64,000 nucleotides of DNA, taken from contig CM126211.1 of assembly GCA_052327205.1 (NCBI GenBank), forward strand, positions 147,498,001-147,562,000, given 5' to 3'. The DNA comes from Somniosus microcephalus (lineage: Eukaryota). Position 1 is the first letter of the stretch, and each line of letters opens with the position of its first letter. Shown here piece by piece: positions 14,777 through 55,356 of the stretch. The notes beneath the pieces are model-generated. The model was not told the origin of the DNA and did no database searches. It worked only from the letters and a program-made list of their open reading frames with translations. Made by a program: the position numbers and the translations under genes.

Positions 14777-15453
14777 GGCCTAGAAATTCAGTGCCCTTAG
14801 CACCGATTTTGCGGCGCTAGAGGGCCTAGCGCTGCAATTGGCGCCGGTTCCTAAATTGCCTGGTGCCCTTCCGCGGCGGTAGACCGGTAGCGCTGCGCCG
14901 GCACCGATGACGTCATCGGTGTGCGCAGCGTCCCGGTTGCCGTGGTAACCCGGCCCCAAGCCGAAATTCAGTTGCGGCCGCCTCGCCAGTGGCAGCCGCA
15001 ACTAAGACTCCGGCAAACGAGTGTTGCCGGAGTCTGCGCCGGCGCTTTAAGGAGGCGCGGCGGCCGGCCGCTTTCCCGCCGGCCGCCTGCCCGCAGCTCC
15101 CTCCCCGGACTTCTCCCCCCCCCCCCCCCCCGGAACAGATGCAAGCCCGGCACTTGTCCGAGGTGCCGGGCTCATTTTTGATGAGATTTGCGCGGGCCGC
15201 AGCCGGGTGCAGGCAGCTCCTCCTTAACGGAAGGAGGAGGCCTGCACTTCCCGAGCCTGCCGCACCGCAGCGGGCGCCGCAGCGCCGCAATGCGGCGCGT
15301 TGCGCCAGTTTTCAGGCGCTAAAACCCTTCAGTAGCGCCGGCAGCCGTTTGGGCGCGGCGCTACTGAATTTTTGGCGCGCGCAAAGGGCTTTAGCGCCGG
15401 CGCTAACTTCCGGCGCTAAAGCCCTGGCGCAGCGCAAACTCAATTTCTAGGCC
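14777..15453. mobile_element. Non-autonomous Harbinger MITE (677 bp) with H1-type TIRs
   Basis: GGCCTAGAAATTCAGT ... ACTCAATTTCTAGGCC, perfect TTA TSD (14774-76, 15454-56); inverted relative of 44744-45448. Confidence 0.9.
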
Positions 15454-15631
15454 TTATAGTTTAATAAAACATCAATCAAGGTTTTCTACATTTATATTTC
15501 TTTGATTATGAAATAAAGAAACAAATTGAACAAAAAGTACTCTCCCTAGACTTACCTGGCACTTTGAGTTATATCATAAAAATACATCTGTTTTAAAGGA
15601 AAGTTGATGTATCTGTGCATAATAAGAGTAA

Positions 15632-20456: not shown

Positions 20457-21043
20457 CTGATACTTTTGTAGTTTATAGCCTATTAAGAAGCTCACTCTCT
20501 CACTACTGAGCACAGTAATACAGGTGCATGTTTAAGAACATTGGCCTAGAAATTCAGTTGGTTGCGCCAGCCGTTAGTGCCTTAAGAGAAGTGAATTTCG
20601 GGCGCTATGTGTGTAGCGTCCGGGCGCAGCGCGATCTGCGCCTCGCCCCAAATTAAGTAGACATTTAGCGCCGGCGCAAAGTCTTAGCGCGCGCTCACCT
20701 GCGCGCGCAGAAAATGACGTCATATCCTCGTGCAACGCCCTTTGCGCGCCCCGATCCAGAACTTCAGTGGGACCGCCCCATTGTGCGGCCGGTGGCCCGA
20801 ACGCTTGTTTAGTGGAACGCAACAGAGCCGACGCGGGCCCCGGGGAGCGCAAATTAAAGGGCACTTACCCTGCACTATAAAGGGCAGCCATTTTGCGGCA
20901 AACACTCTTGTGCAACGGATTTCTGGAGAGAGACCAAGGAAGAGAGCTTTCTGGTTTGGGCCAACACTAGCTCAGGTATTTTTGGCTTCAGGCCAGAGCG
21001 TTGCAAGTGGCCTCTTGGATATTTGACTGTTTGGCAGCATATT

Positions 21044-22183
21044 ATGGGGGCTGCATGGGGTGCCAACGCTGAGTTTCAGCGTCATGTCCATAGGGCTCGC
21101 AGACGCGGGGTGAGAGGGGCAGCCCTGGCTAGACGCAGAGGGGGCAACAGGCGTCGGCAACATAGGCCTTACCCAGTCAGGGCATACCGCCAGCAGCGCT
21201 CCTACCTCAACATGAGTGGCGCGCGATGTGTAAAAAGGCTGAGATTCCGAAAGGAGGTGGTTGCAGAGATCTGCCATCTGCTTCGCAGAGATCTGCGTCC
21301 AAAGCTCAGGAGCAGGACGTCTCTGTCGGTGGACGCGAAGGTGACGGTGGCCTTGAACTTCTATGCCACCGGCTCCTTCCAATCCGCTGCTGGGGACATT
21401 GCTAACATATCCCAGCTCGCCGTGCATTGCTGCATCCGCCAGGTGACCAATGCCCTTTTCAGAAGGAGACGCCAATTCATCTCCTTCCCCATGGCCCTGG
21501 AGAGGCAGCATCAGCGTGCACTGGGATTTGCAAGATTCGCGGCCTTCCCCTTGGTGCAGGGCGCCATTGACTGTACGCATGTGGCTTTGCGGGCACCTGT
21601 GGAGCATGCCGAGGATTACCGCAACCGGAAGGGCTACCATTCCCTCAATGTGCAGCTGGTGTGTGACCACAAGCAGCGCATCCTAGCTGTCAATGCCCGC
21701 TTTCCAGGCAGCAGCCACGATGCCTTTGTCCTGCGGCAGACAACTGTGCGTGACATGTTCGAGGCACAGCCTCCCCCAAGAGGATGGCTTCTCGGGGACA
21801 AAGGCTATCCTTTGTGTACCTGGCTCATGACATCGCTCCGCGCGCCCAGGACCCCTGCTGAAGAGGCATACAACGAGAGTCATCAAGCGAGCAGGAACAT
21901 AATCGAGCAAACAATTGGCGTCCTCAAGCAGCGGTTCCGCTGCCTGGATCGTTCCGGCGGATCTCTGCAGTATTCGCTGGACCGAGTCTCCCAATTCGTC
22001 GTTGTTTGCTGCATGCTGCACAACCTGGCTCTCCGCAGGACTCAGGCACTGCCACCTCACGTTGGACCACCACCTCAGGAGGAGGAGCAGGAGGAGGAGC
22101 AGGAGGAGGAGGAGTACCATCCCAGGAGGGAGCGAGAAGGTCCAAGGGCCGTCCGTCGGCGGCTTATTGAACGTCACTTCTAA
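21044..22183 (+). CDS. Harbinger DDE transposase (HARBI1-like, 379 aa from ATG), intact
   Basis: [50 protein letters not shown] and CCMLHN motifs. Confidence 0.93.
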   Translation: MGAAWGANAEFQRHVHRARRRGVRGAALARRRGGNRRRQHRPYPVRAYRQQRSYLNMSGARCVKRLRFRKEVVAEICHLLRRDLRPKLRSRTSLSVDAKVTVALNFYATGSFQSAAGDIANISQLAVHCCIRQVTNALFRRRRQFISFPMALERQHQRALGFARFAAFPLVQGAIDCTHVALRAPVEHAEDYRNRKGYHSLNVQLVCDHKQRILAVNARFPGSSHDAFVLRQTTVRDMFEAQPPPRGWLLGDKGYPLCTWLMTSLRAPRTPAEEAYNESHQASRNIIEQTIGVLKQRFRCLDRSGGSLQYSLDRVSQFVVVCCMLHNLALRRTQALPPHVGPPPQEEEQEEEQEEEEYHPRREREGPRAVRRRLIERHF

Positions 22184-22546
22184 GCCCCCTGTCAGGGAAT
22201 GCCTTGTGGCCATAAAGGAACATGAACGCAGCCGCTCCGCAAGCCCTCAGCCGGCGAAGGCAACAAACACTTACAACAACAAACATGGACACTCTATGAA
22301 TAAAGAGAAATCTTTATTTTAGACAAATGAAACCCCTTCCCACATGAAACCCAGATACATTCAACGGCCCCAAAAAACAGTACATCAAATGACTCACTCC
22401 CACAACCTGGGGAGGAATAACTGAACATTTGGACAAAAATGGCCTTCATCCTCGGCCTTAACCCAAAAAACATCCCCAGAAACAAAACAACCATCCCCAA
22501 AAGAAACATAGGCATCGCCATATAAAATAACACTTGGCCACACCGT

Positions 22547-24480
22547 CTACTTATTGGGCCGCGAGGCCGAGACCTTGTCGAGCCTTTTGGGGCCCCTGCC
22601 CGGCCTGCTGCTCCTCTGCAAGCTCTGCCCAGTGGCTGCTGCGAGGCTGGGGGAAGGCTCCTGAGGGTCAGATGTCCTTCCGGCAGATGCCCTTGGGGGG
22701 CGGCCTAGACGGGGTTTGGCCCTCGAGGGGCCGGCTGGTGATTGGCGCAGCTGTGCCTGGCCAACATCATTCGCAGCCGCTTGCCGTTGAGGCTCCACTG
22801 GGGGAGTGGCGGTGACGGCTGGAGGAATGTGTGCAATCTGGCGGATGGGAGGCGCTGGCTGGTGATGTGGCACTCTGGCACTCGCCCGGGCCCGCACTGC
22901 AGCATGCGCACCAATCTGCCGAAGGGCAGCCCGCTGTGCTGCTGCAGCGCGGCGGGTGTCCAGGCGATGCCTGGCTGACGCAGCGCGTGTGGCAGCAGTG
23001 AGTGCCCCTGTTGCCCTGGTCTGCGACCGCAACAGAGCAGCCACTGTCTGGACGGCATCACTGATCAGCCGGCCACTCGCGGCATGTGAGGCCCCGAACT
23101 CGCGCACACTACTAGCCAGGGACTCGATCGCCTCAGGCATCCGTGCCACTACCCCCATCAGCTCGGTGTGCCGGCGATCCGAATCCTGGGCCATTTGATC
23201 GAGGTGGCGCGCCTCCTCTGAGTTGAACGTGTCCGGACTGGAGTCCGGACTCGCCCGCTGGGGAGCAGGGGGCCGAGCTGGCCAACCCTTGCCACGTTGC
23301 CGGCGGCGACTGGGCCCAGCAACTGCACTCCCCTCCGATCCTTCCCCCCTCTGGGGGGAGGGCCGCGGACCAACCGCAGCCCTCCTGGGTTGCTGGACGC
23401 CACTGGTCCCAGCAGCTCCACTCCCCTCCGACACTTCCTCCAGGCTCTCCTCCAGGGAAGACGTGTTCACTACTTCAGCATCTGCAGCCGGACCTGAGTG
23501 CTGCCCTGATGGTCCGCCTTCCTCTTCCTCCTCCTCCTCCTCCTCTTCGGAGGGGCTGTCACTGGCAGCTTCAGGGAGCTCCTCGTCACCAGCTGAAAGC
23601 AGGAAGGCACAAGAGTAGCTTTAGAGTGAGGAGAGGGCGTCAGCGAGGGAGGCATGACTGGTGGCATTCAGCGCATTGGTCGGACAGTGGCAAAGGAGGT
23701 AGATCGGATGCGCAAGTGCGACGAGAGAGGTCCAAAAGGTGATGTCCTTACCATTGTGGCCCAGAAGAGGGTCGGCATCTCCACAGGCGACGGGCCCAAT
23801 CACCCGGGCTCCCATGAAGCGACTCACGCGCTCCTCCAGGGGAGTGAGTTCCTGGATCTGGGGGCGGCCTCCCCCGGTCTCCTCCTGGTGCCTTCAGTTG
23901 TTTGCAAGTTTTGCCTGCAAGAGAAAGGACGGCCTGTAAGTACGGTGTGTAGCCCTGATGTGGTGTGCACTGCCTCCCATGGTGGAATAGCTTGGCCAGT
24001 GTGTAGCCCTGATGTGGTGTGCACTGCCTCCCATGGTGGAATAGCTTGGCCAGTGTGTAGCCCTGATGTGGTGTGCACTGCCTCCCATGGTGTAAAGTGC
24101 AGAATGTGCAATTGATGTTCATGACTGTCCCATAGCTGCTGGCTGAGGGCTGGCCATTAGGGCTTTCAGGTCCCTTTGCCCATCATGTCAGGTGTACATG
24201 CAAGGATGAGGAGGAGACTGGAAAGGGCACTCACCCTGACAATCCTGGTCAGGTCATTAAACTTCTTCCGGCATTGGACATTGTCCCTGGGGGCATCGCC
24301 GGTGGCCGACACCCTGCGGGCGACCTCCCTCCAGGCTTTCCTATAGACGCTGGTGGGAGGCTTCCTGCCAGTGTCCGGGAACAAGATGTGCTGTCTCTTC
24401 TCCAAGGCCGTCACCATCACCTTCAAGTCATGGGCTGAGAAGCGCAGGGCACGCTCACGGGCCTTCTGTACCGTTGCCAT
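22547..24480 (-). pseudogene. H1 Myb/SANT-like partner gene, exons 24480-24235, 23914-23752, 23592-22547, with premature TGA in exon 2
   Basis: RFS..DL..MV..LE..AW.EVA..R..QCRKKFNDL Myb/SANT signature; GT-AG introns in phases 0 and 1; TGA at 23896-23894. Confidence 0.85.
23945..24092. repeat. ~2.7 tandem copies of a 54-bp unit in Myb-gene intron 1
   Basis: GTGTGTAGCCCTGATGTGGTGTGCACTGCCTCCCATGGTGGAATAGCTTGGCCA repeated essentially perfectly. Confidence 0.95.
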
Positions 24481-25122
24481 GGCTCCTTCTGCTCACCAGC
24501 AGTGTTCAGGCCTAGCTGGAAGGCTGCAGTGTGCAGGCCGTTGCAGCAGACCAAGTCGACCCTTCCGCCTTTAAGAGCTGGCCGGCGCCACGGTGTCTGC
24601 TGTCAATCAAGAAATGACCGCACCTGCGCTGCGCCCGGCCTCGGCGCTATCCCTCAGCACCGCCGGCTTAGCGCCTAAAGATAGTCGTGCATCGCCAGTT
24701 TTAGCGCTCCAGCAACCTCTTAGGGCGAAGCTACTGAATATCGGCGAAGTGCCCTCGACTTTGCGCCGGGCGCAAACTTTAGCGCCCACCCGACTTTACC
24801 GCCCCAAAACTGGCTATACTGAATTTCTAAGCCATTATACTCTAGATTGTGACTTACAGATTCATGGAGCTCTGCACCCTTGCCACTAACTCCATTCTCC
24901 TCCCTAGCTACTGTCTCAGGCTGAACCCGACTGTTTGCCATCTCAATTTCTTATTTGACCACAAGCTGATTTTCCAACCCCGTGGCGTTGATTTTCATCT
25001 TCACTGCCAGGCCAGTAGAGCGGATTGCCCACCTGTTGTAGAAACCACCCAGTTTTCATTGCACAATTTCAGATTACCACCCAGGCAGTGAAACTGAAAA
25101 TCTACCCACATATCTTTTTAAG

Positions 25123-37767: not shown

Positions 37768-38018
37768 TGATGTAACAAAAGAGTCTCACACATCAAGGAA
37801 CTTTAAAATAAGCTTTAAGCAACTTATAATTAAACTATATACAAGAGCGGTTTTCACCATGCCTCTAGGTGAAGCCCTTTTACCATACTGAGCAGTACAG
37901 TATTTATACTAGTCCAAACACAGGAAGTGACATATGCACAGGAAGTGATGTATGCACAGAGTTCACAGTTCACAGGAAGTGATGTGCACATAACTTCCCG
38001 GAAGTTATTATTATCACA
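37768..38018. mobile_element. Solo LTR (251 bp) inserted in the RT of Gypsy A
   Basis: TG...CA ends, CATGG TSD (37763-67, 38019-23); removal restores NSMVCVKK; internal ACAGGAAGTGA repeats. Confidence 0.85.
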
Positions 38019-39630
38019 CATGGTATGTGTAAAGAAAAAGAACAATGATCTAAGAGTATGCATGGATCCAAAGGACTTAAATGTAAACATAAAACGTGAA
38101 CACTACCAGATTCCCAAGCGAGAAGAAATCACCAGTGAAATGTCAGGTGCCAGATACTTCACAAAGCTCGATGTCTCACAGGGATATTGGCAACTAAAAC
38201 TGGATGAAGAGAGCACCAAATACTGTACCTTCAACACACCATTTGGCAGGTATTGTTTCCTCAGAATGCCTTTCGGGATAATATCTGCATCTGAAATCTT
38301 TCATAGAGCGATGGAACACATAATTGAAGGTCTGGAAGGAGTTCGGGTCTATGTTGATGACATCATCATCTGGGGCTCCACACTGAAAGAACACAATGAG
38401 AGACTGACTAAAGTGCTACAGAGCATACGCCGGAATGGACTGAAGCTCAACAAAGCCAAGTGTCAGTTTGGCGTCCAGGAAGTCACTTTCCTAGGAGATA
38501 ATCTATCTGGTAAAGGAATAGAGCCAGATATGGAAAAAGTAAATGCCATACTCAACATGCCCCGACCCACTGACAAAAAAGGAGTGCTACGCATCATGGG
38601 GATGATAAACTTCATTGTAAAGTTCATTCCTAACTTGTCAGCCAAGACAGCCTGTCTGCGAGACCTGCTACATAAAATAAATGAGTTCGCATGGACAGAA
38701 AGACATGAACAAGAGTGGATGAACCTTAAAACAGTGCTGACAACCACACCTGTACTCACCTTCTTTGACCCAACAAAGAGAATCAAAGTGTCAACAGATG
38801 CATCAAAAGATGGCCTAGGCGCGGTCTTGCTACAAGCAGAGGGTGAAGATTGGAAGCCTGTTGCCTATGCCTCCAGGTCTATGACTGATTCTGAGTGTCG
38901 ATATGCCCAGATTGAAAAGGAATGTCTAGGCTTGGTAGTTGGACTAGAAAAGTTCCATGGCTACATATATGGACTTCCCACCTTCACAGTTGAGACAGAC
39001 CACTGCCCACTGGTTGCCATCATAAAAAAAAACCTGAATGAGATGTCTCCAAGGATTTAGCGACTCATGATGAAGCTGCAAAGATATGACTTTGAACTGA
39101 TCTACACACCAGGCAAACACACAGTGTTAGCAGATGCACTATCCCGAGCACCCACAATGAGTCATGTGAGCTCTACTGAGGAAGACGTGGATGTTCATGT
39201 GAGTATGGTCACTGCTGCGCTGCCCGTGTCAGACACAAAATCAAAGCAAATAGCAGAAGAAACAGTAAAAGATACAGGGCTAGATTTTCAGTATAGGCAG
39301 TTTTGGGGCGCTAACCTTAGCGCCCGCCCGAAGTTAGCGCCCGCCCCAAAGTAGCGCCCCGTTGCCGGGAATTCAGTGGCTTCACCCTAAGAGGTTGGTG
39401 GAGCGCTAAAAGAGGCGTTCCACTACTATCTTTAGGCGCTAAGCCGGCGGTCCAGAGGGATAGCGCCCAGGCGGGGTGCAGCGCGGGTGCGGTCATTTTT
39501 GGACTGACAGCAGACCCCGTGGCGCCGACCAGCTCTTAAAGGGGGAAGGGACGAATTGGTCTGCTGCCACGCCCTGCACACTGCAGCCTTGCAAAGAGGC
39601 CTGAACACTGCTGCTCAGCCCCAGGGAGTC

Positions 39631-41517
39631 ATGGCAACGCCAGAGAAGGCCCGTCAGCGTGCCCTGCGCTTCTCAGAGGGTGATCTGGACATAATGGTCA
39701 CAGCTCTGGAGGTGAGGCGCAAGATCTTGTTCCCAGAGAGTGGGAGGAATCCAACCCACCACGACTACACCAAAGCCTGGAAGCAGATCGCCCAGAGGGT
39801 GACGTTCACCGGCGATGCCCCCAGGACCCACAAACAATGTCGTAAAAAATACAACGACCTGACCAGGATTGTCAAGGTGAGTAGCCTTTCCAGTCTCCTC
39901 CTCATTCTTGCATGTACACCTGACATGATGGGCAAAGGGAGCTGAAAGTCCTATTGGCCAGCCCTCAGCCAGCAGCATTGGGACAGTCATGAGCATCAAA
40001 TGGCCATTCGGCACTCTACACTTTGGCCAAGCTATTCCACCATGGGAGGCTGTGCACACTACATCAGGGCTTCACTCTGGTCAAGTTATTCCACCATGGG
40101 AGGCAGTGCACACTACATCAGGGCTACACTGTGCACTTACAGCCCGTCCTTTCTCTTGCAGGCTAAAGTAGCCTTTAATCACCAGGCCCGTGCCAGGGGT
40201 GGCCGCGCCAAGCTGCAGAAGCTCACTCGGCTGGAGGAGCGCGTGTGTGTGCTCATGGGAGCCCGTGTGATCGTCCCCACAGCGTGCGGAGTATCCGACC
40301 CTCCACTGCCCGGCAATGGTAAGGACCTCGCCTTTTGGCCCTCTCGCGTCGCACTGGCCCATCCGAGCTACCTCCTTTGCCACTGTCCCACCAATGCGCT
40401 GAATGCCACCAGTCCTAACTCCCTCGCTGACGCCGTCTCCTCACTCTGAAGCTACTCTTGTGCATTCCTGCTTTCAGCTGGTGACGACCAGGACCCTGAA
40501 GCTGCCAGTGACAGCACCTCCGAGCAGGAGGAGGAGGAGGAGCAAGCCGGACCATCGGGGGAACAGTCACGTCCCGCAGGAGAGGAGGAAATGCTTGACA
40601 CCTCCTCACTGGACGAGTGCCTGGAGGAACTGTCGCAGGGCAATGCAGCTTCTGGGACCAGTGGCGTCCAGCCACCCAGGAGCCGTGCGCGTGGCCCGCG
40701 GCCTTCCCCCCAAAGGGGGGAAGGATCAGAGGAGAGTGCTGCTGATCGGCACACTCGCCGCCACCAACGTGGCAAGGGTCCCTTAGTTCGGCCCCCTCCT
40801 CCCCAGCGGGAGAGTCGCGACTCCAGTCCGGACACCTTCACCTCGGAGGAGGTGCGGAAGCTGGATAAGATGGCCGAGGATTCGGACCGGCGCCACACGG
40901 AGCTCATGAGCGTGGTGGGGCGCATGCCTGAGGCCATCGAGTCGCTGGCGACCAGTGTGCGCGAGTTCGGGGCAGCAACTGCCGCGAGTGGCCACATGCT
41001 GACTAATGCCGTCAAGACCCTGGCGGATGTGATGCGCGCGCACACCAGGACAACAGGGGCACTCACTACTGCCACACGCGCTGTCTCAGGCAGGCATCGC
41101 CAGGGCAGCCGCCGCGCTGGACCATCCCAGCAAGCCGCCCCTCGGCTGATTGTTGCGGATCCTGCAGTGCGGGCCCGGCCGAGTGCCACCGCGCCACAGC
41201 ACCAGCCAGCGCATCCCAGACGCCAGCTGGCCCACATTGCGCCATCCGTCGCCGCCATTCCCCCACTGGGGCGTCAAGGGCAAGCGGCTGCAGCTGATGG
41301 TGGCCAGGCTCAGGTGCGCCACTCAGCAGACGGCCCCTCGAGGCCCAAACGCCGTGTAGGCCGCCCCCCAGCGGCATCTGGCGGAAGGGCATCTGAGCCT
41401 CAGGCACCTTCCCCCAGCCTCGCAGCAGCCACTGGGCAGAGCTTGCGAAGGAGCAGCAGGCCGGGCAGGGGAGGCAAAAGGCTGGGCAAGGTCTCGCCCT
41501 CGCGGGCCACTCAGTAG
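39631..41517 (+). CDS. H2 Myb/SANT-like DNA-binding partner, exons 39631-39876, 40162-40318, 40478-41517 (~480 aa), intact
   Basis: Myb/SANT motif in exon 1, gtgagt/ttgcag and gtaagg/tttcag introns, continuous frame to TAG; same structure as H1 and H3. Confidence 0.85.
40024..40129. repeat. Two copies of the 54-bp intronic unit in H2
   Basis: TGGCCAAGCTATTCCACCATGGGAGGC(T/A)GTGCACACTACATCAGGGCT, the reverse complement of the H1 unit. Confidence 0.9.
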
Positions 41518-41880
41518 AGGGTGTGGCCAGCTTTCCTTTTATATGGCGGTGGCCATCTTTATTTTGCCCATGGTTGTGTTGTTGGAGGGCTTATTTTTTG
41601 CGTTAGGCCGACGTTGAGGCCCGGTTTGAAGAAAGGTGGAGTGACTCCTCCCCAGTTTGTGGGAGTGAGTCGTTTGTTGGGCTTTTTGTGGGGCCCGTTT
41701 ATTGTTTTTGGGGATTCATGTGGGAAGGGCTTTTCATTTTTGTGTAATAAAAAATTATCTTTATTCATGCAGTCTCCATGGTTGTTCTTCTTAGTGTTTG
41801 TTGGCTTCGCCGGCTGAGGGCTTGCGGAGCGGCTGCATTCATCTTCCCTCATGGCCCCTGGCCATTCCCTGACAGGGGGC

Positions 41881-43017
41881 TTAGAAGTCCCGTGTAATAA
41901 GGTGGCGTCGTGCGGCCCTTGGCCCTGGTCGCTCCCTCCTGGCAACGTACTCCTGCTCCTCCTCCTCCTCATGCTCCTCCTCCTGAGGTGCTGGTCCAAC
42001 GTCAAGTGGCAGTGCCTGAGTCCTGCGGATAGCCAGGTTGTGTAGCATGCAGCAAACCACCACAAATTGGGAGACCCGGTCCGGCGAATACTGGAGAGCT
42101 CCTCCGGAGCGATCAAGGCAGCGGAACCGCTGCTTGAGGACCCCAATAGTTAGCTCGATGATGTTGCGGGTGGTTTGATGGCTCTCGTTGTAGGCCTCTT
42201 CAGCAGCGGTCCTGGGCGCGCGGAGCGGGGTCATGAGCCAGGTGCACAAAGGATAGCCTTTGTCCCCGAGTAGCCATCCTCTTGGGGGAGGCTGTGCCTG
42301 GAACATGTCATGCACAGTACTCTGCCGCAGGATAAAGGCATCGTGGCTGCTGCCTGGGAAGCTGGCATTGACTGCCATGATGCGCTGCTTGTGGTCACAC
42401 ACCAGCTGCACATTCAGAGAATGGTAGCCCTTCCTGTTGCGATACTGCTCGCCATGCTCCAGAGGGGCCCGCAAAGCCACATGCGTACAGTCAATGGCGC
42501 CCTGCACCAAGGGGAATTCCCCGAGTCTGGAAAATCCCAATGCGCGCTGATGCTGGCTCTCCAGGGCCATGGGGAAGGAGATGAATTGGCTTCTCCTTCT
42601 GAACAGTGCTTCGGTCACCTGGCGGATGCAGCGATGCGCGCCATACTGGGAGATGTTTGCTATGTCCCCAGCAGCGTATTGGAAGGAGCCGGTGGCATAG
42701 AAGTTCAATGCCACCGTCACCTTCACTTCCACCGACAGAGACATCCTGCACCTGAGCTTTGGCCGCAGATCTCGGCGAAGCAGGTGGCAGATCTCTGCAA
42801 TCACCTCCTTTCGGAATCGGAGCCTTTTAACACATCGCGCGGCACTCATGTTTAGGTAGGAGCGCTGCTGGCGGTATAGCCTGACTGGGTAAGGCCTACG
42901 TGGCCGACGCCTGTAGCCCCCTCTGCCTCTAGCCAGGGCTGCCCCTCTCACAATGCGTCTGCGAGCCCTACGGACATGGAGCTGCAGCTCCGTGTTGGCA
43001 CCCCATGCAACCCCCAT
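41881..43017 (-). CDS. Harbinger DDE transposase of H2 (378 aa from ATG), intact
   Basis: Same catalytic motifs as H1 (GAIDCTH, PGSSHD, GDKGYP, IELTIGVLK). Confidence 0.93.
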   Translation of the reverse strand: MGVAWGANTELQLHVRRARRRIVRGAALARGRGGYRRRPRRPYPVRLYRQQRSYLNMSAARCVKRLRFRKEVIAEICHLLRRDLRPKLRCRMSLSVEVKVTVALNFYATGSFQYAAGDIANISQYGAHRCIRQVTEALFRRRSQFISFPMALESQHQRALGFSRLGEFPLVQGAIDCTHVALRAPLEHGEQYRNRKGYHSLNVQLVCDHKQRIMAVNASFPGSSHDAFILRQSTVHDMFQAQPPPRGWLLGDKGYPLCTWLMTPLRAPRTAAEEAYNESHQTTRNIIELTIGVLKQRFRCLDRSGGALQYSPDRVSQFVVVCCMLHNLAIRRTQALPLDVGPAPQEEEHEEEEEQEYVARRERPGPRAARRHLITRDF

Positions 43018-44192
43018 CAAATCCTGGCAAACACTCAAATTTCCAAAAGGCCACTTGCAGCGCTCTGGCCTGAGTCCAAAAATACCTGAGCTCTTGCTGC
43101 TTGAAACCAGTTAGCTATCCTCCTTGTTGTGTCTCCAGAAATGCGTTGCACAAGAGTGTTTTCTGAAAAAAGGCTGGCCTTTATACTGGAGAGCACGTCC
43201 CCTTTAATTTGCACCCCCCGGGGCCCGCGCTGGTTGTGTTGCGTTCCTTTTTCCAAACGCTCCGGCCGCCAGCTGCACAATGGGGCGGTCCGACTGAAGT
43301 TTGGAATCGGGGCGCACAAAGGGCGTTGCACGAGGATGTGACGTCATTTTCTGCGCGCGCATCCGGGCGGGCGCTAAACTTTGCGCCGGCGCTAACGGGC
43401 AACTTAATTTGGGGCGGGGCACAAACTACACGCATAGCGCCCGAAAATCACTTCTCTTAAGGCGCTAACTGCTGGCGCTATCAACTGAAAATCTAGCCCA
43501 CAGTGTTACAAACAGTAATAGAGAACATTCATCATGGTTGGCCAAAAGGTTCCTGTCCAAAGTACTTTCACATCAGGTCAGAGTTGAGTGTCGCAAGTGG
43601 ACTATTACTAAAACAGAACAGAATAGTCATTCCACAGGCTCTACATCAAGACCTGCTCAAAAGGATTCATGAGGGACACCTTGGAATTGAAAAATGCAAA
43701 AGGAGAGCAAGAGACACCGTTTATTGGCCTGGTATAAATAAGGACATTGAGAACATGATAGGCATATGTGAGACATGTCAGAAACACCAAAACAAACAAG
43801 CAAAGGAACCAATGATAGTAGCTGACTTACCAACAGCACCATGGCAAAAGGTTGGTATGGACCTTTTTCATTTGAATGGTAAAGACTATCTAATAGTGAT
43901 TGACTACTATTCTAACTATCCTGAGGTGGCACTGCTCTCAAGCACATCAGCAGGCAGTGTCATAATGCATGTTAAATCCATCTTCGCCAGATATGGAATT
44001 CCCAGGATTGCCATTATCGACAATGGTCCGTGCTTCAACTGTAAGGAGTGGCAACAGTTTGTAGCATAGGTGACAACCCCATAGCTATGTTTAGATTTAG
44101 AATTACATTTGTAGACGTGACTGTCCACATGAAATGTGTCAAATTTAATGTTGAGCCTTTTTTTTTAATACATACATTGCTGTACATACCAG

Positions 44193-44743: not shown

Positions 44744-45448
44744 GGCCTAGAAATTCAGTTTGGGCCCGCCAGCTCGCTTGCGCCCAGAAGTTACCGCTGC
44801 GCGCGGAGCCACTTGCGCCCGCCGGAAATTCAGTTTCAGCGCCCCAAGTCGAAGCCGGCTGCTATTCAAGGGTGTGGCCGCCCCCGCTTGGGGCGCTGCA
44901 ACTGAATTTCGGCGCGCTAGGTGCCGCAGCGCCACCCGCTGCGGAGCGGCAGGCTGCGGTACTGCAAGCCTTCCTCCCTCTCTTAAGGGGGAGGTGCCTG
45001 CAACAGCGAGATCGCCGCTCGCTAGTGCCGGCAAATGAGCCCGGCACCACGGAGAAGTGCCGGGCTCCCGGAAAACAGCCGGCAATGCCGTGGGGGGGGG
45101 GGGGGTGGAGGAGGCCGGGGAAGGAGGTGCGGGCAGGCGGCCACCGAAAAAGCGGCCGGCCGCACCTCCGCCTTAACTCGCCCCACTAAGGCTGCAGGAC
45201 AGCCCCGTTTTCAGATCGCTTTTTGCGGCCGCTGCGGAAGAGGCGGCCACAACTAAATATGGCGGTCGGGCCGGTAGCGGGGCAGTAGCGGGGCACTGCG
45301 CACACCGATGAAGTCATCGGTGGCGGCGCAGCGCTACTGGCTAACGCCGCCATTACCGCAGCGCTGAATATCGGCGCAATCTCAGCAAGTGGCGCAAAAG
45401 CCCTCTTTGGGCGAAAACTGGGCGCAAAGCCTACTGAATTTCTAGCCC
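44744..45448. mobile_element. Non-autonomous Harbinger MITE (705 bp)
   Basis: GGCCTAGAAATTCAGT ... ACTGAATTTCTAGCCC, AAA TSD; inverted homolog of 14777-15453. Confidence 0.9.
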
Positions 45449-45582
45449 AAACTGTAACTAAACAAGTCATGGGGATGGGGAAAATTAGACAGCAAGTTTG
45501 AAGCACACCAGCAGACCACTCAAAGCATTTATACCACTTGGAGTGCTGCTATAAAGAAGACCCTCTTTTGATCCATAAGTTT

Positions 45583-46022: not shown

Positions 46023-46076
46023 TTCTTGCATATTCTCAGCTAGTCTCAGGAGCAATGCGAAGTTCTAGACCACCAA

Positions 46077-46242
46077 ACATACTATAGGAGGTGGACATAC
46101 TACAGGAGGTGGACATACTACAGGAGGTGGACATACTACAGGAGGTGGACACACTACAGGAGGTGGACACACTACAGGAGGTGGACATACTACAGGAGGT
46201 GGACATACTGCAGGAGGTGGACATACTACAGGAGGTGGACAT
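46077..46242. repeat. 18-bp minisatellite, left block (~9 units)
   Basis: CAGGAGGTGGACA(T/C)ACT(A/G) units up to the Gypsy C TSD. Confidence 0.95.
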
Positions 46243-48717: not shown

Positions 48718-50017
48718 GACATACTACAAGAGGTGGACATACTACAGGAGGTGGACATACTGCAGGAGGTGGACATACTGCAGGAGGTGGACATACTACA
48801 GGAGGTGGACATACTACAGGAGGTGGACATACTACAGGAGGTGGACATACTACAGGAGGTGGACATACTACAGGAGGTGGACATACTGCAGGAGGTGGAC
48901 ACACTGCAGGAGGTGGACATACTACAGGAGGTGGACACACTACAGGAGGTGGACACACTACAGGAGGTGGACATACTACAGGAGGTGGACATACTGCAGG
49001 AGGTGGACACACTGCAGGAGGTGGACATACTGCAGGAGGTGGACACACTACAGGAGGTGGACACACTGCAGGAGGTGGACATACTGCAGGAGGTGGACAC
49101 ACTGCAGGAGGTGGACACACTACAGGAGGTGGACACACTACAGGAGGTGGACACACTACAGGAGGTGGACACACTACAGGAGGTGGACATACTGCAGGAG
49201 GTGGACACACTACAGGAGGTGGACACACTACAGGAGGTGGACATACTACAGGAGGTGGACATACTACAGGAGGTGGACATACTACAGGAGGTGGACATAC
49301 TACAGGAGGTGGACATACTACAGGAGGTGGACATACTACAGGAGGTGGACACACTACAGGAGGTGGACATACTACAGGAGGTGGACACACTACAGGAGGT
49401 GGACATACTGCAGGAGGTGGACACACTGCAGGAGGTGGACACACTGCAGGAGGTGGACACACTGCAGGAGGTGGACACACTACAGGAGGTGGACACACTA
49501 CAGTAGGTGGACACACTACAGGAGGTGGACACACTACAGGAGGTGGACATACTACAGGAGGTGGACATACTGCAGGAGGTGGACATACTGCAGGAGGTGG
49601 ACATACTGCAGGAGGTGGACATACTGCAGGAGGTGGACACACTACAGGAGGTGGACACACTACAGGAGGCGGACACACTGCAGGAGGCGGACACACTGCA
49701 GGAGGCGGACATACTGCAGGAGGTGGACATACTGCAGGAGGTGGACACACTACAGGAGGTGGACACACTACAGGAGGTGGACACACTACAGGAGGTGGAC
49801 ACACTACAGGAGGTGGACGTACTACAGGAGGTGGACATAATACAGGAGGTGGACATACTACAGGAGGTGGACACACTACAGGAGGTGGACACACTACAGG
49901 AGGTGGACGTACTACAGGAGGTGGACACACTACAGGAGGTGGACATACTACAGGAGGTGGACATACTACAGGAAGTGGACACACTACAGGAGATGGACTT
50001 ACTACAGGAGGTGGACA
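48718..50017. repeat. 18-bp minisatellite, right block (~72 units)
   Basis: Same unit, continuous for ~1.3 kb, degenerate at the distal edge. Confidence 0.97.
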
Positions 50018-50164
50018 TAGCAATTTCGTTCCTCATTGATTCCGGTGTGCCTTTGACCAGTTCCTATGAGAATCAAAGAAGTCTGCCTTCATTCCAATGC
50101 TGTGTATAAATAAATATGATGTCCTTCCACTCCCTTAATCTTTTATATTTAGTGATATAATAGA

Positions 50165-50563: not shown

Positions 50564-51314
50564 GACTACCACAAAATCAAGCTGACATTATAGTAGGAAA
50601 AGACCTCAGTGGAAGCCACAGGGCCATATTGTTTATAAATATCCATTTTATAACATTGACAAAGATTCTGGTGGGTGTTTAGAACTTGGGCTAGAACTGG
50701 CCCTGCCTCGGGTAATGTGTCCTGATCAAATTTTATATTCAAACATTGCATGAGTAGACTCGGTGTCTGCCTGCAGGGAGTTAGTGGGCTCGATTTTGCC
50801 AGGCCCGAGGAGGCGGGATTGGAGGCGTATGAGGTGTTAAAATCGCAAAAAATGGCAGGCGGCTCCGATCCCATCTACAGCCCGCCTCTGAGCAATTTTC
50901 CCAGAATCGGGGTTTCAGACCCCGTTTCCATCCCGCCTCCAAGAGGCGGGATAGGCCCTTAAGGCCCTTAACAACCAGTTAAGTGCCTCTATAATCCAAT
51001 TTTGAGAGGCCTTTCTGAATTAGCACTTTACCCCCATGCTGCACGTCTCCTCTGGAACACGCCAGTTAATCCTGGCGGCCTCACAAGTGGATTGCTTACT
51101 AACAGCTGCAGCTCCACCATTAAAAAGGAGTTTCAGCAATCATCATTTGCAGGTGGCAGAACTTTGTTGTCTCAGGTCTGGGGGAACTTTTAGCAGGCCT
51201 ACTCATTGTTGTGGAAGTTTGGAGCCTGACACCCATCTCCAGTGTGACCTCCTGAGAAACCCCTCCCCCCCACCTTGACTGAGCGCTTCCTCAACTGAGG
51301 TATATAGCAGAAGA

Positions 51315-52549
51315 ATGGGAACCATTTATTTCCTTTCCTCCTGGACATCAGATTCGGACGAAGACCAGTTGCGGCAGCAGCAGAGCCCTGAACAACAGCA
51401 GCACCAACAACAGGAGTGCCAACCTGCTGCTCACCCACCTGAAGCTGCACAGGCAAGAAGGCGCCAGCGCATGGAAGCACGTCGCCACAGGAGATACCCC
51501 AAAACAGGGTTTACAGACAGAGGATGAGCTACCTCAACCTGACTGAGCAGCAGTGCCAAAGGAGGCTCAGACTTTCGCGAGAGGTAGTGGGTGACATCTG
51601 CGAAATATTGCAGCAAGACCTGGAGCCCAGAGGAGCGGGTGGACACCCCTTACCAGTGACCGTCAAAGTCACCACCGCACTTAACTTTTTTGTTTCAGGC
51701 TCATCCTAGGAATCAGCAGCAGACATCAGCGGCGTCTCCCAGGCGGCCGCACACACTTGTATCACACAGGTAACCGATGCCCTCTTTGCCATCGCGTACA
51801 ATTACATCAACTTCTCCAAGGATCAAGCAAGTGTAAGCGTGCATGCGGTTGGATTCGCTAATCTGGCAGGCTTTCCAAGGCTGCAGGGCGTCGTTGACTG
51901 CACACATGTGGCCCTTAAGGCACCCCATCATAATCCAGGTATTTTTGTCAACCGCAAGGGCTTCCACTCCCTCAACGTGCAGCTGGTGTGTGACCACAAG
52001 AAGGAAATGTTGCATGTTTGTGCCAAGTACCCTGGCAGTTGCCATGACTCCTTCATCCTGCGCCAGTCTAGTGTGCTTCTGCTCTTCAGTCGGCCAGACC
52101 AACTTTTCGGATGGCTACTTGGAGACAAGAGCTATCCCCTGAAGACGTGGCTAATGACGCCATTGAGGAGCCCATCCAACGAAGCTGAGGAGCGCTACAA
52201 CTCCAGCCACATTTCCACCAGGTCCATAATCGAGCAAACCATTGGCTTGCTGAAGATGTGCTTCAGATGCCTTGATAGATCAGGTGGAGCCCTGCAGTAC
52301 TCAGCAGCCAGGGTCTCCAGAATGGTTGTGGTTTGCTGTGCACTTCACAACATGGCACAGGATCATGGCTTGCAGATGCCTGAGGAACAAGTGGCTCATC
52401 GCATAGCCTCCTCAGATGAGGAGGAGGAAGAGGTGGAGGAGAGCGACAATGAACAGCTTGCGGAGGCACATCAACCAGCGGCAGCAGCACACGAGCATAT
52501 TGCTGCCCAGGATGCAAGGGACGCACCCATCTTGACCAGATTTGCTTAG
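51315..52549 (+). pseudogene. H3 Harbinger transposase with frameshift (~51500-51525) and stop (51707-09)
   Basis: [54 protein letters not shown] and CCALHN motifs. Confidence 0.9.
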
Positions 52550-52807
52550 CCTAGCGAATCAAACACTTTTGCCTCACATCTTCTTACCAGAGCATCAACA
52601 ATGGCCAAGAACCTGCGGATTCCTATCACTCTGACCACCATACTGACAATTGCAAGTCGCATTAAGCCCTCAATGTGGAAGTCCCATTTGCGAAATGACA
52701 CAGGCCACAACTTCAACAGTTTGCCATCAGAATTTTTTATTACAATAATCAACGGATGGCATTTAAAAAATAAACACAACATAACACCCAAGTGACTACC
52801 CTTGTGA

Positions 52808-54792
52808 CTACTTGTGCTTTATCTTCCTCTTACACGTGCTCCTACGTGGTGCTTCCCCTGTGGCTTCAGCAGATGTGGAGGCCCCTTGCTCACTTTCTTG
52901 CTGCTCCTGCCTCGACACCTTTGGTGGGTGTCCTCTGGGTTTGCGAGCCTGTGAGGGCTCGGCAACAGTCTGCTGCTCCTGCGGCTGTGCAGGGGCTGAG
53001 ATGCCAATCTCAGTTGGGTGAGGACTCTGGTGGGGGTCTGACCGAGGGCTCTGCAGTGGCATGGTCGTGTAAGCACTTGGAGAGGAGCCCCCCACTTCCT
53101 GGTTCTCTGCCACCAACATCCCTCATGGGTCAGCCCCACTTCAGAGCTAGCAAATGGCTTGACAGCACCTTGCTGTACTTCAGGGGGGCCATGAGGACCC
53201 GTTTCTGCACTGGAAATCCTACTCCAGATGACTTCCATGAAGGTCTGGTTTCTCTGCTCAATAGCTGACCATCGCTCCTCAAGCAATGTCATTCTATTCT
53301 GAACAATGACCATGTTTTCAAGACCCTGGTGACTAAGCTCCTCCATAGCCATAGCCATCCTCTCCTCTACCGTAGCCCTCCTCTCCTCTACGGTAGCCAG
53401 CCTTACCATGGAGGTAGCCATCCTTTCCACGAAGGTTGCCATCCTTTCCGTGGTGATGCGTTCATGCGCCAACGCCTCCACAAAGGCCCTGCTCATGTTA
53501 GCGATGGACTCCTCCATTCGCTCCACACTCGCAGTGACCCTGGAGACAAAACCTGCCAGAGACTCCTGCACCACTTCCTGGAGTTCCAGCACTGCTTTCC
53601 TTCTGGATAGACCCGGAGGCACAGGATCGACATGCAGTGGAGCCGAGCTGGGAGAGTCCTGCGCCCTCCGATGAGGACTCTCCACTGCTGTCTCTGTCTC
53701 CACCATCTGCTGATGCTCACTTGTGAGCGATGATACACCAGGTGACAACTCTACTCTATGTCCTGAAGGTCCCACTGAGGTGTGAGTGTCTGCGTTGGTG
53801 CTGGGTGCGCTGAATTCTGCTGACGCTGCGCCCTCAGAGGTTGCAGCTTCTTCTGAGGAGTCTGGGCGCTCAGGCTGTTCCTCCTGGACAGTGGGGAGGG
53901 GGGCTGTCGATGGTCCTGTGGGGGAGTAAATGAAAGAGTTAGACATGGGAGATAAACGTTGCATGCACATTGAATTGTGCAGATGATCATAAGTCAATCT
54001 GTTAGAGTATCAGAATCAATATCAGTCAGTCATGCAATGTCAATGAGAGAGATGAAAAACTATTCTGTCACCAGCTTGCTCTGATGCGCCCGTCTGTCCG
54101 TCCCCCACTTGCGCATCCTCCTCCACTCCCACGATCTCCAGGGCCACCTCCTCCACAGTGGTGAGCTGGGCTATTGAGGGTGGCCCTCCTCCTGTCCTCG
54201 CCCTCTCCCTCTTATTGTGGGCTTTCTTGTGGAGTTTGAGTGAGAATGAAGGAGTGAGTGTAGAGAATCCATAGCATAGATGCTTAGAAGGACACAAAGA
54301 TGGAGTGAGGTGGCAAGACCAAGGGCCCTCCCTGTGTGTTGTAAGTTGTTGTCGTAGCATCACAGTGATAGGAAGTGTGAGGGCTGCATATTCGAATAGT
54401 TAAGTGAATGTGAACATACAGAGAGAGGGAATGGGTAAGAGTGCAGGGATGTAAGGGTGAAGTGGGATGTGGAGGAGGAGGTTGACAAAGCAGAGTGCTG
54501 GTGATGAGAGGCGATGGGATCAGATTGAGGGTCATGGGGATGGAATACTCACTTTTCCTGTGCGGAGAAGGTCATGAAACCTCTTTCGACACTGCAGCCA
54601 GGTTCTGCTGCACATTGAAATCGCATTCACCTCCTGTGCCACTTGCAGCCACACAGCTTTGGTCTGTTGTGGAGGCTTTTTCCTCCCTGAGGAAGGAAAG
54701 AGCACTTCCTTGTTTGCTCTTGCTCCCTCCACCAGAGCTTAGAGGGAGGCCTCATCGAATCTGGGTGCACACTTTGGTCTGATGCTAGACAT
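52808..54792 (-). pseudogene. H3 Myb/SANT (NAIF1/MSANTD-like) partner gene, 3 exons, disrupted
   Basis: Exon 1 54792-54553 (PRF..ASL*AL..WLQVAQEVN..RTWLQCRKRFHDL); exon 2 to 54072 (HNKRERARTGGGPP); exon 3 from 53915. Confidence 0.8.
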
Positions 54793-55356
54793 AGTAGCAG
54801 TAGGAATCCCTCAGAAGTATGATGAGTAAGTTGAAAGGCTGAAAAAGAACCAAGGCTGCTTGCAGGCCTTAAATCCAGCTGCATAGATGACATCATCGGA
54901 GGCGAGTTTCAGTATCAAAAGGCTCATTGGGCCAGGGGTTCCCACACGCTGGAAATCAAGTGCCCAATTAGGGCAAAATCGTACCCGGAGGCGGGGTCCT
55001 GACACGCCCCCAGCCCGCCCCCAATGAAAAAATCCAGCCCAGTGCCTCCAGTTGTGGCTTTGATATGGAAAAATGATCAGATAATAAAGCAAACAATAAA
55101 AACCTAAAGGGGTCAATCTCAACTTGCCTGAAAAATGGACAGCCAGCAATTGGAAATTGAGGAGAAATGGGGCCATCAAATGGATGAACAGCCTACCCAC
55201 CTGAAATAGTTGGACCCTGATTGCAATTTTCAGGTACACAGCACTGTGCACACTCTGCCCTGTTGTGCCAGGCATTGAGTGACCTAACCAGTGGTCCGAG
55301 AAACTGCCCAAAAAACAGCCCAGAAAACCTTCCATTTTTTTTGGTGAGCCAAGGAG

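Follow-up and report, generated by a model that had tools for sequence, protein, structure and literature searches.

Fast Myb exons flanking slow introns in Harbinger transposons of the shark Somniosus microcephalus: very probably accelerated exons rather than functional introns

The usual view of DNA transposons is that inside a host they decay and that horizontal transfer lets them survive. In VANDAL transposons the non-coding VANC motifs differ from one subfamily to another and depend on a dedicated protein, and the P-element IVS3 is a case of regulated splicing. In zebrafish, the Myb-like protein of Harbinger3_DR is described as binding both a 9-bp subterminal motif and the transposase (PMC9710019), and the Myb-like proteins are portrayed as less conserved than the transposases (PMC9179366). 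The ladder shape of mammalian LINE-1 has been tied to an arms race with the host, and the same text lets DNA transposons such as mariner persist by horizontal transfer and extinction (PMC6562965). For conotoxins, which are among the venom genes compared with our elements below, a role of error-prone polymerases has been suggested (PMC3862624).

The window, that is the whole stretch of 64,000 nucleotides that was analysed, holds two full elements, H1 and H2, which are 83% identical overall; in each, a Myb/SANT gene of three exons converges with a gene for a DDE transposase (Table 1). Both are ordinary PIF/Harbinger members, as judged by a transposase of the HARBI1/DDE_Tnp_4 type, the Myb/SANT second gene, short terminal inverted repeats (TIRs) and a 3-bp target site duplication (TSD), although the duplications ACA and ATT differ from the TAA/TTA typical of plant PIF. 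The best homologues of the transposase carry HARBI1-like names, and GC-rich repeated motifs, putative binding sites of the Myb protein, lie near both element ends. Among the best 120 of 161 matches listed, the closest proteins are from elasmobranchs and at most 66% identical; a PDB sequence search gave no significant relative. H2 was 99-100% identical to all 40 genomic matches scored. Amino acid identity of the third element, H3, is 37% in exon 1 and 56% in the transposase.

Table 1. Positions of the Harbinger elements and their parts in the window
Feature	Position	Strand	Remarks
Harbinger H2 (subfamily A, youngest)	39277..43499	+	15-bp perfect TIRs; 3-bp TSD ACA
Left subterminal module of H2	39296..39369	+	H1/H2 identity 62%
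Myb exon 1 (Myb/SANT domain)	39631..39876	+	PF13873, E=1.2e-11
Intron 1 (GT-AG)	39877..40161	+	231+54n nt in most subfamilies
54-bp tandem repeat inside intron 1	40023..40134 (limits approximate)	+	1-11 units among copies
Myb exon 2	40162..40318	+	
Intron 2 (GT-AG)	40319..40477	+	159 nt in 99 of 106 parsed copies
Myb exon 3, low-complexity	40478..41517	+	dN ~ dS
Convergent 3' UTRs	41518..41880		polyA signals back to back
DDE transposase, 378 aa	41881..43017	-	open frame; PF13359, E=1.4e-39
Harbinger H1 (subfamily C)	20543..24833	-	TSD ATT; in-frame stop within exon 2
H1 Myb gene	exon 1 24480-24235	-	intron 1 320 nt; intron 2 159 nt
Harbinger H3 (lineage II member)	50785..55045 (limits approximate)	-	
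Non-coding Harbinger MITE	44745..45450	+	TIR as in H2; control for transversion bias

Several features of the surroundings were recorded as well. H2 is embedded in a Gypsy-like pol stretch (37950-44050), whose motifs, assigned by eye, we take to be those of a reverse transcriptase, RNase H and an integrase-like domain. Many reads of runs X7, X8, X4 and X5 bridge the ends of H2 (39273-43500) and skip about 4226 bases; they may represent empty sites or very short derivatives. Positions 6-635 hold part of the right end of a further Harbinger, with 69% identity to H1, and a long minisatellite with an 18-bp period lies at 48718-50019, with a short second array at 46066-46242 and LTR-like repeats adjacent. 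Elsewhere in the genome nine subfamily A exon-1 matches (L066-L074) are clustered in both orientations within about 100 kb (G000:C1:16548254-16651014), which may reflect local hopping or tandem amplification. The left subterminal module switches abruptly between subfamilies C and B (net p ~0.30), GGCGCTA motifs being more numerous in B, AB and A, and the switch possibly reflects a changed layout of binding sites.

The genome searched amounts to 6.4 Gb and contains 6,179 and 34,553 matches to two exon-1 patterns and 8,205 matches to a 32-mer of intron 2. From these, 120 full-length regions were taken, 118 of them from the first places on contig 1 as chosen by the exon or the intron motif. The resulting set comprised 123 elements, of which 106 were parsed, one was unparsed and 16, truncated or from other lineages, were set aside; 91 copies entered whole-element alignments, and after dropping four mosaic-looking copies 12 subfamilies with at least two members remained. 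The rates were derived from distances between pairs, from counts of alignment columns and from partition models, and the 66 subfamily pairs are not independent. Half of the sampled copies were picked through the intron motif, which biases the sample toward similar introns; the copies picked through the exon motif gave the same slow introns and fast exons.

The inverted pattern of conservation that the first-pass annotation had described for H1 and H2 was reproduced by global alignment. Intron 2 is 159 nt in both and has 14 mismatches (3 transitions, 11 transversions; 91.2% identity), and intron 1 has 6 within its first 100 nt; over its whole length it has 28 mismatches in 285 columns plus 35 gap columns, for which the 54-bp repeat and a deletion of 19 bp account. 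In exon 1, 63 of 246 nt are mismatched (74.4% identity) and exon 2 is diverged as well, with 46 in 157 and a 6-nt indel. Taken together, the introns (42 of 444) differ less than exons 1 and 2 (109 of 403; Fisher p=2e-11) and also less than the 4-fold sites of the transposase (30 of 155; p=0.002), while the transposase coding sequence, at 89%, is about as conserved as the introns. Transversions outnumber transitions in every region of the element.

This relation is general. Each intron is less diverged than each of the first two exons in all 66 subfamily pairs, the net distance between subfamilies being 0.069 for intron 1 and 0.067 for intron 2 (66 non-independent pairs) and 0.225, 0.214, 0.162 and 0.085 for exons 1, 2, 3 and the transposase, respectively. 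Promoters (0.10-0.13) and 3' UTRs (0.211; UTRs 0.18-0.21) also exceed the introns. Silent-site divergence (pS) falls from 0.346 in exon 1 and 0.288 in exon 2 to 0.161 in exon 3 and 0.143 in the transposase, where replacement divergence (pN) is 0.162 and 0.066. The lack of codon periodicity in the introns holds too: for the variable columns of 11 subfamilies p is 0.71 and 0.58, versus p<0.001 in the transposase. How the introns compare with synonymous sites depends on the reference. They are far below the silent sites of the Myb exons, as the annotation would have it, but elsewhere they lie near the silent baseline in both lineages.

An independent replicate is provided by lineage II, the H3 type, which gave 5,082 motif matches and 30 copies, 16 of them intact. 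Here the distances are 0.239 for exon 1, 0.174 for exon 2, 0.097 for intron 1, 0.134 for intron 2 and 0.114 for the first 600 nt of exon 3, and those of the 4-fold sites 0.38, 0.24 and 0.106 for exons 1, 2 and 3. Both introns are below exon 1 in every one of the 102 pairs used (of 120), and intron 2 is below exon 3 in just 35 of these. The introns of the two lineages can barely be aligned (best shuffle P 0.013 of 6 tests), and thus the pattern does not depend on a particular intron sequence.

The private mutations of single copies, which we used as a proxy for decay after insertion, allow the exons to be separated from the host. Outside CpG they amount to 0.005-0.006 in introns, exons, UTRs and transposase alike (introns 0.0059, exons 1+2 0.0051). 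Therefore, the mutation rate of the host does not explain the fast exons. The ratio of fixed to private differences is 0.65 in introns and 2.07 in exons 1+2 (p=5e-17, with neighbouring pairs non-independent), and rates shift sharply at the splice junctions. The acceleration includes silent sites. At third positions of codons whose amino acid is invariant, exons 1-2 differ by 0.258 (4-fold, n=23) and 0.236 (2-fold, n=16), compared with 0.080 in the intron cores (n=304) and with 0.127 (4-fold) and 0.046 (2-fold) in the transposase, that is about three times the intron cores and, for 2-fold sites, about five times the transposase (p=5e-6). The same is seen within subfamily A, where nested sub-lineages have gathered 19 shared variants in exons 1-2, 12 of them silent and 7 replacements; five of the silent variants fall in the last 40 nt of exon 1, and silent sites toggle or revert singly on both sides of an A-specific codon. 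Subfamily C has just 2 silent and 5 replacement variants there; pooled, A and C show about 14 changes in 200 silent sites and 9 in 688 intron sites (p=7e-5, site totals being approximate).

Introns, exons 1+2, exon 3 and transposase share one ladder-like order of subfamilies (G, E, F/D, C, B, AB, A); minor disagreements concern the short F/D branches, and resolution is poorer in the trees of promoters and 3' UTRs. Such a common ladder, on which all 66 pairs show the effect, excludes a single conversion tract as its cause and leaves a recent exchange of introns between subfamilies, the other explanation offered earlier, unsupported. In AU tests the tree of transposase and exon 3 is not rejected by the introns (p=0.10) or by exons 1+2 (p=0.40). 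One copy, L163, has a left end 99% identical to A and the body of C, so subfamilies do recombine.

The ladder is also remarkable for its speed. Private non-CpG decay rises from 0.0024 in A to 0.0086 in G, values that are inflated in small families and deflated in large ones, and G copies are 0.021 from the majority of their own family. The introns of A and G, however, have a net difference of 0.14-0.16, and the intron branch of G is 0.005 long versus 0.18 to A. This large distance, set against low private decay and the short G branch, indicates a fast trunk: if the root lies among the most divergent copies, the successful lineage outpaces the decay of inserted copies roughly 7-25-fold. Sharks mutate slowly, the rate in the epaulette shark being given as 7e-10 per generation (PMC10587355). 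A reservoir outside sharks with repeated horizontal transfer was considered and rejected: among the best 120 of 161 transposase matches listed, the top 54 are all from elasmobranchs, and the first named bony fish match is 51% identical (7990 candidates scored).

The trunk has a spectrum of its own. Fixed differences have a transversion to transition ratio of 1.9-3.8 (3.4 in introns), with 21-44% C<>G changes, and private non-CpG mutations a ratio of about 0.7-0.9. The introns have 41 transversions and 14 transitions. Variants found in two or three copies resemble private ones (21 transversions, 28 transitions), whereas those in at least four copies are rich in transversions (102 to 25, p=3e-6). 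Among repeats of the window, the ratio is 0.33-0.84 in six other pairs and 1.5-2.2 in five Harbinger pairs. In the non-coding MITE, shared differences are 14 transversions to 2 transitions and private ones 42 to 32 (p=0.02), 2 of the 14 lying at the element edge. The non-coding Harbinger MITEs at 44745-45450 and 14873-15455 and at loci L241-L270, this one among them, show transversion-rich subfamily differences. Since the excess is found in introns and in a MITE too, it is not by itself a signature of mRNA escape. A transversion-rich clock specific to Harbinger means that host mutation rates and transition-biased models will misdate such elements.

Our data imply, with high probability, that the unusual component of this gene is its fast exons and not a function of its introns. 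What drives the exons is less certain, and escape from silencing as the cause has in our judgement an even chance. The introns keep a slow and even baseline clock and exons 1-2 run about three times faster even at silent sites; each new subfamily would have been selected for a spliced mRNA unlike that of older copies already silenced by the host in a piRNA-like manner. The silencer would most plausibly be a small RNA that slices the spliced mRNA (PMC10338343). The transversion-rich baseline of the whole element, which is read most cleanly in the introns, might stem from repair errors during cut-and-paste replication or from weaker escape selection, favouring any mismatch to older copies. The silent acceleration, its sharp limits at the junctions, the fast UTRs and the ladder all argue for escape in exons 1-2.

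The account of PIWI slicing just cited lists escape via target mutation as a theoretical route and G:U wobbles as the least costly mismatches, which would favour transversions; it also has PIWI tolerate mismatches, by which a single-base escape would be weak (PMC10338343). Two more specific predictions failed. Even spacing of differences was seen in 1 of 30 tests at p<0.05, with clustering in transposase and exon 3, and the Myb mRNA showed no strand asymmetry against wobble-forming transitions (64 vs 64). The silent acceleration of the spliced mRNA is present in exons 1-2 and the UTRs, weak in the transposase, whose silent sites change just 1.6 times as fast as introns, and absent in exon 3 of lineage II, which is no faster than its introns; hence the mRNA as a whole is not accelerated. 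We therefore propose only tentatively, and with more doubt than belief, that a vertically inherited vertebrate DNA transposon has formed a single LINE-1-like escape lineage, which evolves by a transversion-rich route of its own, exceeds its slowly mutating host in pace by an order of magnitude and continually recodes the silent letters of its Myb exons past piRNA memory. If true, its copies would archive how changes of single nucleotides evade silencing by small RNAs, and the introns would serve as an internal neutral control.

It could be argued that the selection acts on the protein, diversifying the Myb surface and the following helix in response to a host restriction factor or so that defective copies and MITEs do not titrate it; silent changes would then be carried along in clustered mutation events. 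We regard this as unlikely, although it is the most serious alternative. Replacement divergence of exons 1-2 (pN 0.19) stands at 2.8 times that of the introns and 1.5 times that of transposase 4-fold sites, helices 1-2 and the loops of the Myb domain take up to 7 residue states per position among the 12 subfamilies, adjacent double changes are over-represented in the coding parts and UTRs, and the left subterminal module has switched once. However, pN/pS of exons 1-2 is 0.54-0.66, the silent sites of invariant codons are equally fast, and most silent variants of subfamily A arose without a nearby replacement in the same step. Moreover, the helix QCRKK(F/Y)NDLTR of exon 1, which from Pfam we take to be the putative recognition helix, is nearly invariant in protein. 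Of the explanations offered by the first-pass annotation, diversifying selection on the exons fits best, with the amendment that it acts on nucleotides, silent ones included, and spares the recognition helix.

It is improbable that the introns themselves are functional, as a structured RNA, a splicing control or a protein-binding platform under purifying selection. They are, indeed, the slowest non-coding part of the element and below the transposase 4-fold sites in 62-64 of 66 pairs (intron cores of lineage I 0.080 vs 0.127, p=0.03; exon 3 4-fold sites 0.149, p=0.001). Intron 2 keeps its 159 nt even between copies about 60% identical, an in-frame stop is retained in it, and intron 1 carries the 54-bp array. 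On the other hand, fixed indels are rare in the promoters too, the number of repeats ranges widely, and lineage II shows the pattern with introns that hardly align. Change in 22 copies, at about 1.5 substitutions per site, is nearly homogeneous (gamma alpha 2.9-4.6, invariable share 0.13-0.16; alpha of 1 or less is rejected for the cores by about 18 log-likelihood units), the invariant columns (56 of 205 and 53 of 159) are scattered outside the splice signals, and no conserved block beyond these signals was found in the 22 copies. In the most distant copies the introns are 57-67% identical, on a level with exon 1. A structured ncRNA is not borne out: the Rfam scan of H2 gave four sub-threshold matches, none of them within the introns, single-strand folding is not unusual (z +1.90 and +0.34), RNAalifold on both strands yielded an SCI of 0.07-0.16 (z -0.9 to +0.1) with more broken than compensatory cells, and changes that are mostly transversions are the opposite of what conserves stems. 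These rates allow for a mild diffuse constraint, which in lineage I would hold the introns at most about 40% under the 4-fold sites and in lineage II would be nil. In practice, these Harbinger introns should not be pursued as ncRNA candidates.

A splicing module or a VANC-type platform in the introns found no positive support either. The unit of the 54-bp repeat stays nearly constant between subfamilies while the Myb protein varies, which differs from a VANC-type target. Each unit holds a start-like motif, CCACCATGG, in frame with exon 2 in A and C; coding introns were rejected on the missing periodicity and on the stop that closes the repeat frame in D and E copies. The stop of intron 2, kept in those displayed subfamilies that keep the frame, overlaps CTCTRA (40444-40449), a branch-point-like motif. 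Retention of intron 2 would append about 43 residues and a stop (40319-40449) to the Myb domain in nearly all displayed subfamilies, and a repressor isoform is a possible product. Splicing of the Myb gene is predicted from the GT-AG ends, the open spliced frames and one contig (run X5, type unrecorded) that skips exactly the 159 nt of intron 2, with a short side of 27 letters. Of 1351 + 1782 RNA-seq reads, none was listed with a spliced junction; introns and exons are covered unspliced on both strands (two raw runs labelled as related), probably by read-through of embedded copies.

A small probability also goes to a mutational process of the active lineage alone, such as error-prone gap repair or transcription-linked damage, that happens to hit exons 1-2 harder, with silent sites free of selection. 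In each region, and in the MITE as well, the spectrum of the trunk is unlike that of host decay, and the other repeats of the window lack the transversion excess of the Harbinger pairs. Nevertheless, private mutations have no excess in exons, and no process acting on DNA is known to us that would end at splice junctions and pass over the intron between two hot exons. Only variants in at least four copies are transversion-rich, which short residence times could also yield. Least probable of all is recombination, in which introns were homogenised or exons were patched by distant Harbingers or spliced cDNA: exon 1 is more homoplasic (22 of 50 informative sites fit the tree vs 67-86% elsewhere), chimeras exist, more than 34,000 related exon-1 motifs are potential donors and the intron and exon 1+2 trees reject one another (AU p=0.004, 0.023), but the parts keep one ladder order, subfamily A silent sites reverted singly around the A-specific codon, and two degenerate junction patterns matched no intron-less genomic copy, a count by which absence is not proven.

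That transposons might get past piRNAs through sequence change is treated as a theoretical possibility (PMC10338343). The elements described here allow a direct test: their copies lie by the thousand, and graded in age, along one ladder, in two lineages, and the introns act as internal controls. The described systems resemble these elements in parts. The retention of intron 2 would truncate a DNA-binding protein as in the P-element IVS3, but here the stop overlaps the branch-point motif and no sign of regulated retention was seen. Like VANDAL elements with VANC, an autonomous DNA transposon carries a tandem repeat in its non-coding part; unlike there, the Harbinger repeat changes at the slow intron rate, its copy number is free and a third gene is lacking. 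In snake venom PLA2 and conotoxin genes introns are described as much more conserved than coding exons, with all three codon positions changing (PMC7285919, citing Nakashima 1993). Those genes have KA near or above KS and conserved UTRs, whereas Harbinger exons 1-2 have the lower pN/pS given above, in a selfish gene with fast UTRs. Zebrafish Harbinger3_DR shares the transposase, the Myb-like gene, the TIRs and the 3-bp TSD; compared by description, it appears in the portion of the literature cited here with no analysis of exon and intron rates, subfamily ladder or substitution spectrum. LINE-1, as portrayed in the cited source, likewise forms successive subfamilies on one trunk (PMC6562965), but Harbinger is a cut-and-paste DNA transposon that has no reverse transcriptase. 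Within the open-licence literature, we found no report of this combination of rates and spectrum in a DNA transposon. Faster Myb evolution between families, genes with slow introns and fast exons, and ladders are each known singly, and it is their combination in a DNA transposon that appears to be new.
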